Below, piece after piece: positions 33,001-39,000 of a stretch of 64,000 bases of DNA. The position numbers are program-made. Position 1 is the stretch's first letter. Each line of letters starts with the position of its first letter. Source of the stretch: an uncultured Bdellovibrionales bacterium (GTDB lineage Bacteria; Patescibacteriota; Minisyncoccia; Moranbacterales; UBA1568); the NCBI GenBank assembly GCA_964428075.1, contig CAYRWQ010000001.1, positions 1,806 through 65,805 on the forward strand, written 5' to 3'.

Positions 33001-36000
33001 TGCTTTCCACTCTCTGAGACACTACAAAACGATGAAAAATCGTTTCTAGATCCTTCCAAAAGAGTCCTGCTACGGCTTGACCCATGAAGCGATCACGAAC
33101 GAAAATAGATCCGGCTCTCGCAATCTCCTCCAGCTGCTCCGGTTGCGTCTGATAATAACGAATCTTCTCCACCAAATCTGCCATATCATCCTTTGCGTAG
33201 GCCACATAGTGTACCCCAGGCATTAATCCAAGATTCGTATACATGGGATCATCGATACCAAAAAAAGCACTGCCACACGCCATGCCCTCAAAGACATTCG
33301 TTGAAGGGAGACCAATATTTTCTTCAGGGCACACAAACATCCGATAGTGATTGTATTTTTGTACCACATCAAAGGCATAATATTTTTTATGCTGATTCGC
33401 GAGCACTAACTTCTGAATAAAACGTGGTGCATATTGTTTGACCATTTTTAAAAAGAGGGAATCATCGGCATTTTCCCGCATAAAGGTGAAATTCTCATAC
33501 TGCTTAATCATGGAATCAAGCGCGTCGGGATACGCCCTGTGTGTTTCCATGATTGTCTTACGCATCGGCTGAAGGACATCGGTTCCAAAGAAACTGATGA
33601 AATCGAGATTCTTCTTGTCGATAGGCGCGATGGTGCCAAGAGCGAAACATTTATTGAGCCGCGATACAAAGCTGGTTTTCTTCTGAAAACGACTCGTAAA
33701 AGTGAATGGGAGTTGATAGACCCACTGTATAGTCGGAAAATGTTTTTTGAAATAAGGAACATTCGTTAAATCGTTTTCCGATACCAGGAGTGTGGGTGAT
33801 TCGAACTGCAGGCTGTTCGCGATATCCTCTGGGTGTAGATAGTAGTGTGTCAAAACAACCACTTTCATGCCCTTGAACACTGGAACATTTGCCTGTTTTG
33901 ATACACCCACATTTGCTCTAGCAAAATCCACTACCACATCACGCTTTGGATCAAGCTGGCTCTGATCAAAATAGATCTTGTGTTTAAACGGGTTGATTCC
34001 ATTGAGAAGCATCCATACACACAGTTCAAGAAACACGAAAAATTTTGGAAAAAACGGAAAGCCGATCTTCACCGCGGCAAAAGACGTCTTGGTTCCATCG
34101 ATATAGAGAGCGGTTTCCCGATTATCATCTTTCAGATAATATTCCAAAAAGTAATGGTACTTCATGAAATCCTTACGCCCTAAGAGGACGTTCACGACGG
34201 TTTTCCCGTAACTATAGTAATGTGGATTGACTAAAACGAGACGCATACAGGTCATTTGCTATTCCACACCCCGACACCCTTACCGAAATCATGCGAAAGC
34301 AGATCAAAAGGTTCGAAAAACTTTTCCAGAATATGCAGGCAAGCCTCTGCTACAGCGCCTTCACCTCCTCGAGCGTGAGTGATATAGTCCGCCACCTCTT
34401 TCGTTTTGTAGAAAGCGTTGGCAGGGGCAATACCATAGGCCACGTCCCGGAACACTAATGGATCGAACATCCCATCCCCCATATATATGGTTTCTTCCAA
34501 ATTGAATCTCTCTCTGATCCATGCGACCCGATCAAAGGTACTCACCAAATCAAGCGGTAAGCCCATATCATCCGCTATTCTTTTCTGAGTAATACCAAAA
34601 CCTCTTTTATCGCCGGTAACGGCATGAATGACGAGCTTCCCCTTCAGTAGATCCAGAGCATCATTATCCTCCGGACCAAATTGCTTCATCACCTTCCCGT
34701 CAACCGTATAGTAAAACTTTCCATCCGTAAAAACCCCATCCACGTCTAATATGAAATTCTTCAAGACATGTTTTGCTGTATCCATACTGAAATCGTTCTA
34801 CTGTTTTTGATGCTCTGATTCAATCCGCCCATCCCTTCGGTCGGTATCGTCTTCTATACGAATGACATCGTCTACTTCAGGCGTAGAAACTTCTTGCAAG
34901 ATGATATCCGTCAACGCGATAACCCTGTGTTTCCGTGGTGGGATAACATTGAAAAAATCATTCGCCCGCATATGCATCTTCTCAACTTCTCCAGATTCAT
35001 TTTCAAGCCACACCTCGGCTTCACCAGCAATGATATAATTTGTCTCTCGTTTCTTTTCATGATACTGAAAGCTCGTTCGATGACCGGCCGTGATACTGAT
35101 CCTCTTATAACAATATCGGTCATTCAATTCTAACCATATTTCCTCTCCCCATGGTTTGATAACGCGTTTCGGAAACTCATTACTACTGCTCATAGTGTTC
35201 TATGATCTCTGTAAGTGAATTAATAATGGATTCTTTAATATCCTCACGTTCTGAAAGCTCACCAATGATCTTCTTATAACTCTCAGAACTGAAACGATAG
35301 TGCCCGGCAATCACGGCGCACAGAAACTTATTATCTGGGGTATTATTATGCATCCACTTCTTCCATTTCCCACTCGCATAGACATCGTCCAAAAACTCCT
35401 GGAAATCTATACCATAGATCAAACACTTCGTAAGAACCAATTGTGTCTGCACAACACCAATTTGAGGCGCGATGTTCCGCGCGTCTACCAGGCCCTTCCG
35501 GATCTGAATTTCCGCCTGAGTAAGGTAATCATCATTATGCTCTTTCAGCTTCATGCCTTTTCGATGAAGCAACTCCGCTATTTTTTCAGTAAACTCACGA
35601 TTAAAGTTTCCGGCCTGATTGATCTCTTTCACCAAACTTCCAGTCTGGACCACATAGAACTCCGGAGTATAAACCGCTTTGAAATAATCAATTTCCCGCT
35701 CGATCTCAGCAATATTCGGTAAATTATAGTTGGATCCCAGATTTTCATCAGTCCCTATTTCCAGCAGGATATTGGGATTGAGACTCAAAGCAAACTCAAC
35801 AGCCTTTTTGGATTCCATCAGTGCCCCATCCTTCGTCCCCTTGAAGTGACAGTAATCAATATGGATGAGATCAAATCCGTTCTCGATATCATCACGAATC
35901 GTATCGTAAGTATCGGTCAAATCATAATTACCATTGAAGCCCGGGCCACAATGGTCACGACATATGAGCACATCGCTGTGTTCATATGTCGTACGCATAT

Positions 36001-39000
36001 CGCGCACAAACTCCATAAACTGCTGAGTCGTCCAACCGTTCACGTAGCCACCGTGAGCATCAACCTGATTCTTCGAAGGAATAAGCATGAGCTGTCTGCG
36101 ATGGTAATGAGAATAACGAAAAGCGGCCTCGATAGCTTCGGTACTCATTGGCCCGATACCGAGATCAGCTCGAATTTTTCCGTACGTTTGTGCTACTTCC
36201 ATATACTATGCGATGTTTAACAATCTATTGAGCGTATTTTTTCCTAAATAGTAGAGCATGAGATCGAATGGGTGGTTATGCATTGGTGACATATTGAGGA
36301 AAATGAGCGCAGCAAGAAGTTTGATCTTCCTCAGGTCATAACCATTCCTCAGAATGAATGATTCATACTCATTTTTCGCTTCCACCAGTTCGTTGGTGAG
36401 GTAGAAATTGTAATACACGCTCGATCCGCTCATATCGAAAGTAAACATTCCTGCTTTGATCAGTGGATACGAAATGGTCATCCCCCCATACAGTTTCGCC
36501 AGATCATAGTACAAATCCCCTATCTTGGTCGAACCACCAAAATCTTGTCGCCAATCAATCAGAACGAATTTCTCCAAATTACTGACCGGGTCCCGCGTGA
36601 CCAAAACGTTGTCAAACTGAAAATCACCATGAAAATTGGAAGGAGTCCCCTCGGTGAGATAATCCCAATCAATTTTCACGAGCAGTTCCTGCAATGGCGG
36701 CACTACGACTCCGTTTATGAGACTTTCCCCATCCTCAATCTCAGACTTCTTATAAAACATTTCGAGACGCTTCAGTGTCTTTGTATGATAGAAGTCTCGA
36801 CAGGCTTGCTGAAACTGAGTCATTTCTTCGGGCGCAACTGTCATTTTCTTCCAAAGATTCATCTTTGTCCACCCGAGAAAATCCCGGATAATCTTCGTAT
36901 TCAGCACTGTATACAGGGTCTGCCCTGAGACTTTCTTATAAGAGTAAAAATGTCCTCGGTACCCTTCGATCCTTGGACATAGCCCAGAAAGATTGTTCAC
37001 CGCCCGTTCATAACGATGCTGAGCGATAGTAACATCAGCAAAAAACTTGATAACTCGATCATTCACGAAATAGAGGTACTCACCCCCTTTACTAAAGTCA
37101 AACTGAGCTTTGGCGCCACTTAAGTTTTTATTGGTTTCCACGTAGTTCGCCTGAGTACCAGTATCAAACCAAGTAAAACCGGTCGGAACCAATTTATGAT
37201 CAATGAGACCACTGAATCCATTCGATACCTGGACCTCTCCATTGGCCACTAATTTATTCTTCTCCAAAGAGTCAAAAAATGCCTCATGATCTTTGACACC
37301 TGCCAAACCGATAAAGGCGAACTTATTATCGTTCTTCGTCTTATCATCCAACTGATAAATGAGATTATTCTTTATTCTTACCGTACAATAGCGCTCTGTC
37401 TCTTTCACCGGAGAGATACCAAACCAGTTATGATCTGGTGCGGGTATTTCCTCAAGGACAATTGTGTCGACCGCCAAGAAGATAAAGGGGCCGTGAAGAT
37501 GAGGCTTGCACTGCAGAAGCGAATACCCCGGACCCGTCCCCGGACCAACGATTTTATCAACCTCCACAAAGGTAAATTTTCGCTCCGGATAGGCGAGCAT
37601 GAGATAATCAATCACCGTCTCCTTTTTGTGTCCGACCGCAATCACTATCTCCACCTCGTTCGGAAACTTTTCAATGATATGAGAAATAACCGCCTTACCA
37701 TTCACCGGCAAAACCGCCTTATTGATATGATTCGATGACTCGCCCATTCTCGTTCCGGCCCCTGCCGCCAAGATGCAGACCTTATATTTCATAATCTTCG
37801 TAGAAACTCAATTTAAAGGCTAGTTATTCTGGAAAAAACAGGTTATTCCCTTCTTGACGATACTTTCTGAGATATCAGGACAGGTATAAAGCTTAAACTG
37901 GGCTATCGACTGAATAACAGACATCTGGATACCAGGGAGAGCCACTTTGTTCATCTCCTTAGCTCTACGGACCAGTTCCGTATCAGTGGCACTCACGACC
38001 ACATCCAAAACAGCCTCACACTTGCGGAGAGCCTCATCCGAAAAGATCATCGCTTCACCCTTCTGCATCCCCACCGGAGTGGCGTTAATAAGAAGATCAG
38101 CCGAAGCAAGCACTGGATTACTCCATGGAATAAAACGCAAGTGGAACTGCTCAGCTAACACTCGAGCTTCTTCATCACCACGAGCAGTGATAGCAATTTC
38201 ACCTGCTTGGTTTTCCTTCAGCGCACAGATGATCGCTCGAGCAACCCCGCCCGCTCCTACGAGCAATGTCGTTTTTCTTTTGACTTTGTACTCATGCTTC
38301 GTGATGGCACGTACTCCCTCAAAGTCAGTGTTGTACCCGATAAGTTTTCCATCATGATTCACAATCGTATTCACAGCTCCAATTTCTCGAGCTACTGGGT
38401 CAATCTCATCCAAGTATTGCATCACCGTCACCTTGTACGGCATAGAAACACCACACCCTCGGATACCGAGAGCTCGAATACCAAGAATCGCATTCTGCAA
38501 ATCATCACTCCGTACCAAGAAAGGCTTGTAAATATAATTCATCCCCAATTCCTGAAAAGCAGTATTGAAAATTGTCGCTCCTAAGTTCCCTGGCTTTTCG
38601 GCAAGCGAGATGCACACCGTCGTATTCCTATCGATCATAAAAGTCGTTTCAAGTGTTAAGTCTCTGTAAAGCTTTTCTTACGTTATCATACCCTTCTCCC
38701 TTTGTCACCCGCCTCATTTTGATTTGATAAAACTATAGATAAATGTTGAAATAACAAAAATAATGAACAGTGGCAATGTGTACTTATTCCACGAGTGTTA
38801 TCAAAAAGAGTCACAAATTCAGAGTGGTACCACCCAAGTTCCTCAATATACATGTCAACCGGTACGTTCAGCTCTCGCAAACAGGCGCAAAGACATACAA
38901 CATCATCAGCCAAGAGAGGTGGCCGAGATTGTCCCCTGCGCATCGAATGAAGCTATAAGACAAATTTGGGGTTGGGCATGATACACTGGTAGTGATCAAA

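Follow-up and report, generated by a model that had tools for sequence, protein, structure and literature searches.

In the biosynthesis of GDP- and ADP-heptose, a ketose-7-phosphate is processed by the isomerase GmhA and phosphorylated at C1 by HddA or HldE, after which the HAD phosphatase GmhB removes the 7-phosphate of the resulting bisphosphate and the nucleotidyltransferase (NT) HddC or HldE activates the sugar. A UDP-arabinofuranose route of phages, which serves DNA containing arabinosyl-5-hydroxycytosine, is outlined in PMC13326640, citing He et al. 2026 (doi 10.1038/s41589-026-02150-z). As summarized there for HY126, an arabinose-5-phosphate (A5P) isomerase yields Ara5P, the kinase of AfhE converts it to Ara-1,5-bisphosphate, the HAD protein AfhF removes the 5-phosphate and the NT domain of AfhE produces UDP-arabinofuranose; the homologues of isomerase, AfhE and AfhF are gp55, gp52:53 and gp51 in RB69 and gp83, gp82 and gp81 in DLP3 (PMC13326640). 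GatZ and KbaZ turn fructose-6-phosphate into tagatose-6-phosphate, and for GatZ it has been proposed that Asp87 is the base that deprotonates the C4 hydroxyl and that His88, Glu171 and His257 are Zn ligands (PMC11907403). Here we analyze a gene cassette in which relatives of such enzymes stand side by side. It is located in a 64,000-nucleotide stretch of DNA (positions 1,806 to 65,805 of contig CAYRWQ010000001.1, assembly GCA_964428075.1), referred to below as the window, from a genome deposited as an uncultured Bdellovibrionales bacterium. The evidence is computational throughout, and taxa are given as labeled in the deposited metagenome-assembled genomes (MAGs).

We consider it rather likely that the cassette, an operon extending from 38638 to 32972 on the minus strand, converts a ketose phosphate of central metabolism into a nucleoside diphosphate (NDP)-activated, probably rare, aldose that is transferred to a surface glycan. 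The genes, starting from the upstream end, are the following.

37820..38638, minus strand: shikimate dehydrogenase (SDH)-like, SdhL-type NAD(P)-dependent oxidoreductase, the fifth core gene; Pfam Shikimate_dh_N/Shikimate_DH
36206..37792, minus strand: fused protein of 528 aa (NT-kinase), with an NT domain at residues ~1-225 and an APH-fold kinase at residues ~230-528; assigned by profile searches
35183..36202, minus strand: GatZ/KbaZ-like TIM barrel of 339 aa with the class-II-aldolase fold, predicted to be metal-dependent; PF08013
34798..35193, minus strand: small cupin of 131 aa, a homologue of the type II phosphomannose isomerase (PMI) domain; PF01050
34252..34785, minus strand: cap-less (C0) HAD phosphatase of 177 aa, KdsC/YrbI family; TIGR01670 below cut-off
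32972..34255, minus strand: Glyco_trans_1_2 / GT90-like (CgeB-like) glycosyltransferase of 427 aa; assigned by profile search

A preliminary description of this DNA had listed the NT-kinase, GatZ-like, cupin and HAD genes as four start/stop coupled open reading frames (ORFs) on the minus strand, followed by a CgeB-like glycosyltransferase gene as the last one. The ORF listing agrees with this layout, and profile searches agree with the five domain assignments made there (NT, APH-fold kinase, GatZ-like, cupin and KdsC-like HAD). The NT-kinase and GatZ-like genes are 3 nt apart, the GatZ-like and cupin genes overlap by 11 nt, the cupin and HAD genes are 12 nt apart and the HAD and glycosyltransferase genes overlap by the 4 nt ATGA, and it is on these grounds that we regard the genes as start/stop coupled. 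The ATGA couples translation of the glycosyltransferase gene to that of the HAD gene, and the product of the former is likely to consume the NDP-sugar. The SDH-like gene starts the module 27 nt upstream of the NT-kinase gene. Since homology searches retrieved thousands of homologues for each cassette gene, the ORFs are real genes. Scanning of the region 28000..39500 returned 31 σ70 promoter sites (22.9 ± 4.9 in shuffled sequence) and 8 terminators (9.1 in shuffled sequence); one promoter-like sequence (39005..38978), which precedes the SDH-like gene, has to be read against these counts, which are near the shuffled background. A second CgeB/GT90-like glycosyltransferase, a paralogue of the coupled one and also 427 aa long, is encoded at 28482..29765, 3 kb further downstream, past genes for a TylF-like O-methyltransferase and a flippase.

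A scan of species-representative genomes yielded 80 loci with the fused gene, and tblastn searches with the window proteins covered 84 loci. The neighborhood counts were obtained with a naive ORF caller on stretches of 6-8 kb, and contigs were often truncated. At a distance of up to 8 kb from the fused gene, tblastn detected the GatZ-like gene in 78 of the 84 loci, the cupin gene likewise in 78, the HAD gene in 70 and the SDH-like gene in 50. Gene order is shuffled among loci, yet the partners stay close to each other in the candidate phyla radiation (CPR), in DPANN archaea and in about 10 other phyla, and clustering of all ORFs around the fused gene recovered the same partner set. In 11-14 loci, which belong to several phyla, a homologue of the CgeB/GT90-like glycosyltransferase is encoded next to the cassette. 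Cassette proteins are also found fused to each other: the NT-kinase with the GatZ-like protein in P0362 (897 aa, confirmed by Pfam) and in a single ORF of locus L049 (about 8001..11000), and the cupin, in N-terminal position, with the NT-kinase in P0374 and P0377 (both confirmed by Pfam). A fusion of the NT-kinase with a GT2 glycosyltransferase is present in P0386 (confirmed by Pfam). In P0366 and P0406 cupin motifs were recognized by eye only, and Pfam made no cupin call. Since the neighborhoods and the fusions agree, there is little doubt that the cassette proteins share one pathway that ends in glycosyl transfer. Chance juxtaposition of the genes is thereby ruled out, and the earlier suggestion of a dedicated pathway has stood. 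The impression that the gene combination is absent from described pathways was likewise borne out, as no description of the cassette or of its gene combination was found in the literature, in family libraries or in the PDB.

The cassette is carried by CPR lineages, by Woese-, Pace-, Nano- and Iainarchaeota and a Thaumarchaeote, by Omnitrophota, Planctomycetota, Elusimicrobia, Verrucomicrobiota, Gemmatimonadota and Bdellovibrionota, and by a Legionella MAG, SAR86, Pelagibacteraceae, Halieaceae and Sedimenticola. The nearest relatives, at 85% identity, are MAGs labeled "uncultured Bdellovibrionales". Thousands of relatives of the fused and GatZ-like proteins are present at 60-85% identity, all from metagenomes or MAGs, and those to which a source gives a name are labeled as CPR/Patescibacteria or DPANN archaea; bacterial and archaeal copies are 60-70% identical. 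A HMMER scan of 1.84 billion representatives retrieved 684 clusters (50% identity) of the fused protein at E ≤ 1e-30. Nearly all of them are 505-545 aa long, so the fusion of NT and kinase is the norm. In the sources, the fused protein goes by "choline kinase", "NDP-sugar pyrophosphorylase" or "hypothetical". The homology search for named or cultured carriers yielded metagenomic proteins with generic names only, neither a characterized nor a cultured carrier came up, and a search for a plasmid carrying the cassette gave no match. One homologue, P0503 (724 aa), has a GIY-YIG and NUMOD3 homing-endonuclease module N-terminal to the NT-kinase part, which may point to a copy from a phage or mobile element.

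In the NT-kinase of the window, Pfam recognizes NTP_transf_3 (E 4e-11) and, weakly, APH (E 1.4e-3); the APH signal was significant in all 15 relatives tested, with a best value of 1e-9. Both catalytic Asp residues of the NT domain are present, as is its GxGxR...K loop, and the catalytic motifs are invariant in both halves of the protein. Structural neighbors of the NT domain are RmlA, GalU, GlmU, MurU and ST0452 and, equally, LicC and IPCT; the best structural matches are hexose-1-phosphate nucleotidylyltransferases. Sequence similarity to HddC is weak (5xhw, E 6.6e-4; NF049965, E 4e-5), that to LicC appears to be confined to the NTP-binding loop, and the MurU equivalog models of NCBIfam score far below their cut-offs (23.1 bits against 370 and 21.7 against 250). 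The Choline_kinase family PF01633 does not match the window protein and matches 3 of the 15 relatives weakly (best E 0.003). A search of the PDB with the kinase-domain profile returned noise only. No clear LicA- or LicC-specific signal was seen in the fused protein, which speaks against the LicC-LicA choline type.

In a tblastn search of phage genomes, a marine virus contig gave a full-length match and Enterococcus phages gave one over the kinase domain; the protein matched in these phages is an NT-kinase fusion annotated as "NDP-sugar pyrophosphorylase-like" whose gene lies beside those of a HAD hydrolase and a thymidylate-synthase homologue. The window NT-kinase aligns end to end with ORF047 of phage 9183 (23% identity, E 4e-29). 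The profile of its kinase domain was matched to RB69 gp52 by hhalign with 91% probability (E 9e-7, 235 columns), and the NT protein RB69 gp53 reached only 52%. The phage 9183 protein, which itself matches RB69 gp52 (E 5e-14), serves as a bridge, and the kinases of the window, phage 9183 and RB69 gp52 share an (L/I)D-x-R-x-x-(F/Y)-G motif. Judged by these alignments, which involve the phage 9183 and RB69 members (AfhE of HY126 being known here by its description), the nearest real relatives of the fused protein appear to be the AfhE-type NT-kinases of phages. The window HAD, when compared with the small AfhF-type HADs RB69 gp51 and phage 9183 ORF046, displayed no similarity to them.

The marine virus AG-345-E15 (MH319741.1, our locus L088) encodes a small HAD, a cupin, an NT-kinase and a GatZ-like protein in a row. 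The latter three are 31%, 32% and 33% identical to the window proteins, respectively (E 3e-45 for the GatZ-like protein), and the HAD is of the small GmhB-like type. The row is a bridge between the phage-type and the cellular versions of the cassette. The same viral contig contains two further sets (4710..6567 and 13294..15306): in one, a separate APH-like kinase stands beside an NT-HAD fusion, and in the other an HddA-like GHMP heptose kinase is followed by another small cupin and an NT, making three parallel sugar-activation modules in one cluster.

The preliminary description had placed the product of 35183..36202 in the GatZ/KbaZ family, and GatZ is indeed its closest relative by Pfam, hhalign and fold. 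PF08013 scores above the gathering threshold (35.3 bits against 26.7, E 6.8e-9) over residues 23-118 only, and precomputed annotations report it on nearly all homologues. The equivalog models of NCBIfam are not reached (TIGR02810 agaZ_gatZ, 33.5 bits against 568.8; KbaZ/GatZ models, 30.8 against 707 and 23.1 against 579). The AlphaFold2 model is a TIM barrel with a pLDDT of 87. Foldseek put the GatZ-family structures 3txv and 2fiq on top (E about 1e-14, TM 0.79, 15% identity), followed by class II fructose-bisphosphate and tagatose-bisphosphate aldolases, GatY, YdjI and SqiA (E 1e-10 or worse and TM about 0.5-0.6 for the fructose-bisphosphate aldolases, GatY and YdjI), and hhalign gave 90% for E. 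coli GatZ and 5% for GatY. In the alignment with GatZ, D83-H84 corresponds to D87-H88, GT-D152 to GT-E171 (with E148 nearby) and H222 to H257. Among 71 sequences, D83, H84, E148 and H222 are conserved in at least 93% and D152 in 70-93%. The second-shell residues of GatZ are not kept (Glu44 is replaced by Ile41 and Cys20 by Gly17), and Lys279 of GatZ lies beyond the region aligned. The protein has the GatZ-type H-[NS]-x-D-Y motif and not the H-G-x-S-G phosphate loop of the aldolases. Because the Glu44 and Cys20 positions differ, because the protein is 80 residues shorter and because it scores far under the equivalog cut-offs, we regard it as a member of a distinct subfamily whose metal-dependent retro-aldol/aldol site, as far as the alignment tells, is intact. 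Its substrate is more likely to be a ketose monophosphate than dihydroxyacetone phosphate (DHAP) plus an aldehyde, and we propose that it may act as a ketose-phosphate C4 epimerase or as an aldolase.

The small cupin is recognized by PF01050 MannoseP_isomer above the gathering threshold (36 bits against 23.6, E 9e-9) and by the C-terminal region of TIGR01479 GMP_PMI (E 1.8e-9); a sequence search of the PDB gave no match. The motifs KPWG, SxQxH..K.E.N, H89 and STPxxDDVxRxxD..R..G are conserved in 69 sequences. This is the full motif set of type II PMI, and we therefore read the cupin as a putative phosphosugar aldose-ketose isomerase, proposed to convert a ketose phosphate to an aldose phosphate. 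The HAD phosphatase matches TIGR01670 with an E of 3e-19 and 69.4 bits, the cut-off being 106.95, PRK09484 with 57.4 bits against 208, and KdsC of known structure (4um5) at 6e-17. It has the C0 architecture, and its DxDG...GDGxxD motifs are conserved in 65 sequences. By these scores it is a KdsC-family-like protein and not a KdsC orthologue. Characterized members of the KdsC family take the terminal phosphate off Kdo-8-phosphate and Kdn-9-phosphate; the window enzyme is proposed to remove a distal phosphate.

The earlier view that four genes hold a complete pathway was correct as to the set, which is conserved, and incomplete in that a fifth core function, the reductase encoded by 37820..38638, had been left out. 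ORF clustering found an SDH-like gene in 46 of the 80 loci and a gene for a FabG-like SDR in 23; both occurred together in none, and neither was seen in 10, several of which are truncated contigs. The exchange of the SDH-like protein for the SDR is a clean case of non-orthologous displacement. Since the two are mutually exclusive, an NAD(P)-dependent redox step belongs to the pathway and, as a consequence, the boundary of the module extends to 38638. The SDH-like protein stays below the equivalog cut-offs for AroE (TIGR00507, 189.6 against 200.2 bits; PRK12550, 245 against 306) and thus does not classify as a shikimate dehydrogenase. Its best match in the PDB is 1npy, HI0607/SdhL (1e-50), and the 5-ketofructose reductase 7cok belongs to the same family; the catalytic dyad K69/D105 is conserved. 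In E. coli ST648, the sdhL gene adjoins the L-sorbose operon and is induced with it (PMC12817954). In view of this gene neighborhood and of the 5-ketofructose reductase in the family, a keto-sugar is a plausible substrate of the SDH-like protein. For the alternative SDR, the NCBIfam matches are generic (FabG and glucose-1-dehydrogenase) and contain no hint at a substrate.

Accessory partners in the 80 loci include methyltransferases whose C-terminal domain is of the C-methyltransferase type (27 loci), NAD-dependent epimerase/dehydratases (19), free-standing paralogues of the NT domain (17), B12-radical-SAM proteins (11) and IMPase/FBPase-like phosphatases (10). A 376-aa methyltransferase with a C-terminal domain of the C-methyltransferase type is encoded between the HAD and glycosyltransferase genes in the nearest relatives, loci L001 (13606..14736), L005 and L036; the window lacks it at the corresponding junction (34252..34255). 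This is the family found in 27 of the 80 loci, often together with an NAD-dependent epimerase/dehydratase, and its position beside the cassette suggests that the organisms carrying it make a C-methylated derivative of the sugar. In the DPANN loci L008, L023 and L027, no KdsC-like HAD gene is present near the cassette and a phosphatase of the IMPase/FBPase family is found instead; in other loci both phosphatases occur. The IMPase/FBPase-family gene may provide a second phosphatase step or have displaced the HAD. In a distant clade (L069-L080 and others), 13 loci contain between the GatZ-like and cupin genes a gene for a conserved 275-aa protein, which has no Pfam or NCBIfam match and may be a clade-specific transferase.

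Taken together, the enzymes could act in the following order. The GatZ-like barrel would break and re-form the C3-C4 bond of a ketose monophosphate, either as a C4 epimerization or as an aldol construction, and the PMI-type cupin would convert the ketose phosphate into an aldose phosphate. The APH-fold kinase domain would then phosphorylate C1, producing a sugar 1,ω-bisphosphate, from which the KdsC-like HAD would strip the distal phosphate. The N-terminal NT domain would form the NDP-sugar, and the adjacent glycosyltransferase would transfer the sugar. At some stage the SDH-like reductase, or the SDR elsewhere, would reduce or oxidize one carbonyl or hydroxyl. The kinase is placed before the phosphatase because this order is reported for AfhE and AfhF. 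We infer this order of the third and fourth steps, as well as the substrates, the product, the nucleotide and the point at which the redox step occurs.

A talo- or galacto-configured hexose or heptose is among the possible products. A possible start from fructose-6-phosphate would lead to a talo- or galacto-configured product, and one from sedoheptulose-7-phosphate to a glycero-talo/galacto-heptose. A reading specific for heptoses, in which sedoheptulose-7-phosphate is turned into manno-heptulose-7-phosphate and then into a glycero-talo/galacto-heptose, was considered, and the evidence neither supports nor excludes it. We tentatively suggest, as a possibility that falls short of an even chance, that the cassette makes an undescribed NDP-sugar, for example a C4-epimerized talo- or galacto-hexose or -heptose adjusted by the reductase, with the GatZ-like protein in a biosynthetic role, and that it is a surface-glycan building block shared by horizontal gene transfer among CPR, DPANN, free-living bacteria and marine viruses. 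A scheme in which DHAP and methylglyoxal are condensed to 6-deoxy-5-ketofructose-1-phosphate on the way to a 6-deoxyhexose would give the SDH-like protein a role like that of 5-ketofructose reductase; we gave it less weight because the cupin keeps the full PMI motifs and the GatZ-like protein lacks the DHAP-phosphate loop.

The activation steps could also proceed in the reverse order, the HAD releasing a free aldose from its 6-(ω-)phosphate, as the preliminary description had suggested, and an anomeric kinase comparable to NahK, AmgK or maltokinase acting before the NT, which would amount to a phosphomutase bypass. We consider this unlikely. In the only relative architecture that has been assayed, AfhE/AfhF of HY126, the kinase is described as acting first, on the sugar-5-phosphate (PMC13326640). 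The kinase is first also in the heptose route with HddA and GmhB. Kinase before phosphatase, and thus no release of free sugar by the HAD, is the order that we prefer.

The cassette might instead make an NDP-alditol or another phospho-alcohol comparable to CDP-ribitol, CDP-glucitol or CDP-glycerol, its reductase yielding an alditol phosphate for a teichoic-acid-like polymer; a phospho-alcohol head group had also been raised earlier. The reductase is a core component, as this would require, and LicC, IspD/TarI and inositol-1-phosphate cytidylyltransferases are also among the enzymes that the NT domain resembles. However, an aldose-forming isomerase of the PMI type would be superfluous in such a pathway, the linked transferases are glycosyltransferases (CgeB/GT90-like ones and, fused in P0386, GT2), the annotated window genes include no TagF- or LicD-type phosphotransferase and, in structure, the NT domain is nearest to hexose-1-phosphate nucleotidylyltransferases. 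An alditol product is improbable on this evidence, and an NDP-activated aldose is favored over it.

That the cassette is a prophage-borne, Afh-like module providing an NDP-sugar for the glycosylation of DNA bases appears very improbable. It is true that homologous phage NT-kinases adjoin thymidylate-synthase homologues, that the cassette occurs on a marine virus contig and that P0503 contains a GIY-YIG/NUMOD3 module. The context in the window is a polysaccharide island, however, with no genes for a thymidylate-synthase-like protein such as a 5hodCMP synthase or for DNA glycosyltransferases among the annotated neighbors and no phage structural gene seen nearby, and the loci of CPR and DPANN, with their flippases and GT4s, are alike in this respect. 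Finally, we can practically dismiss a LicCA-type choline/ethanolamine kinase/cytidylyltransferase that adds phosphocholine to glycans and has unrelated neighbors, given the Choline_kinase results above, RmlA and GalU scores equal to or above those of LicC, the co-conservation and even fusion of the gene with sugar-phosphate enzymes and the fact that no licB- or licD-like genes were seen.

The island to which the cassette belongs is ~45 kb long (~8000..52000). It contains a flippase gene (30497..31777), at least 10 glycosyltransferase genes (GT4, GT2 and CgeB/GT90-like) and at least six genes for SAM methyltransferases, including a 521-aa double-methyltransferase (18915..20480). The following genes of the island and of the cassette flank were also assigned.

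9220..11109: AsnB-like amidotransferase, in the island
39014..39949, plus strand: ROK-family glucokinase-like gene (PF00480, E 1e-49), divergent from the cassette and peripheral, not core
40195..41364: GDSL-like protein, in the island
41386..43230: carbamoyltransferase, in the island

NCBIfam glucokinase models match the ROK gene below their cut-offs, and it is kept in the closest relatives only (5 of 84 loci); its presence hints weakly that it may supply hexose-6-phosphate. The gene at 43621..45084 looks CapD-like by eye only. Pfam returned no match at E ≤ 1e-5 for four plus-strand ORFs of the island, 11943..12977 (344 aa), 12974..14656 (560 aa), 14749..16794 (681 aa) and 27446..28450 (334 aa). 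GC skew, (G-C)/(G+C), lies between -0.09 and -0.31 in every 2-kb bin of the window (1..64000), an unusually large asymmetry, and it stays negative despite the switch of the genes from mostly the plus strand (6-28 kb) to mostly the minus strand (28-58 kb).

It is through their surfaces that CPR and DPANN organisms live as episymbionts, and to our knowledge almost nothing has been learned about their glycans; the identity of the sugar would provide a chemical marker for these lineages. If the proposed pathway is true, the AfhE/AfhF kinase-phosphatase-nucleotidyltransferase module, described in 2026, extends from phage DNA to cellular glycans in both prokaryotic domains, and a biosynthetic role is assigned to the GatZ-like and SdhL-like families. 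C4 epimerases of the GatZ type are of industrial interest for tagatose production, and the cassette could supply compact biocatalysts for rare-sugar nucleotides.

How the cassette relates to described systems can be judged enzyme by enzyme. The GatZ-like barrel is nearest to the family of E. coli GatZ and KbaZ in its Pfam match, hhalign comparison and fold, and the set of Asp-His, acidic residue and His is kept. In contrast to E. coli GatZ, the window protein is shorter (339 against 420 aa, about 15-23% identity), and its operon is a biosynthetic one, not a catabolic one, and has no GatY partner. The reductase shares with SdhL and 7cok the conserved Lys/Asp dyad, and the precedent in that family is the reduction of keto-sugars rather than of dehydroshikimate; unlike sdhL, its gene belongs to a nucleotide-sugar cassette, where that of a FabG-like SDR can replace it. 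ManC, AlgA and XanB, which are bifunctional type II PMI/GDP-mannose pyrophosphorylases, likewise pair a PMI cupin having the conserved motifs with a sugar-1-phosphate nucleotidylyltransferase. Here, however, the cupin is free-standing in the window and N-terminal in the fused relatives P0374 and P0377, that is, in reversed order, and an APH-like kinase and a HAD take the place of phosphomannomutase.

As to whole routes, AmgK/MurU of MurNAc recycling and LicA/LicC of the phosphocholine pathway, to which the cassette had been likened at first, do, like it, combine an APH-fold kinase with a small nucleotidyltransferase that acts after it. The likeness holds for the pairing and does not make them the closest relatives, the phage AfhE-type proteins being nearer; their kinases take unphosphorylated substrates, their gene contexts are unrelated and the window protein does not belong to these families at the level of HMMs. 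The GDP-/ADP-D-glycero-manno-heptose route has a reaction order identical to that of the proposed model. It differs in the enzyme families, with SIS in place of the cupin, GHMP or ribokinase in place of the APH-fold kinase and a GmhB-type in place of the KdsC-type HAD, and it includes neither an aldolase-fold enzyme nor a reductase. With the HY126 route, the cassette shares the logic of the steps and a fused protein with an N-terminal NT domain and a C-terminal APH-like kinase. It departs from that route in having a PMI-type cupin and not a SIS-type A5P isomerase, a HAD that is KdsC-like and not small and GmhB-like, and, in addition, the GatZ-like barrel and the reductase, owing to which the sugar must differ from that of the phage; it is located in a glycan island of cellular bacteria and archaea and not in a phage DNA-modification locus. 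The logic of activation is thus already known from phages and from heptose biosynthesis, and what is new is a cellular, cross-domain version for glycans equipped with a GatZ-like protein, a PMI cupin and a reductase.

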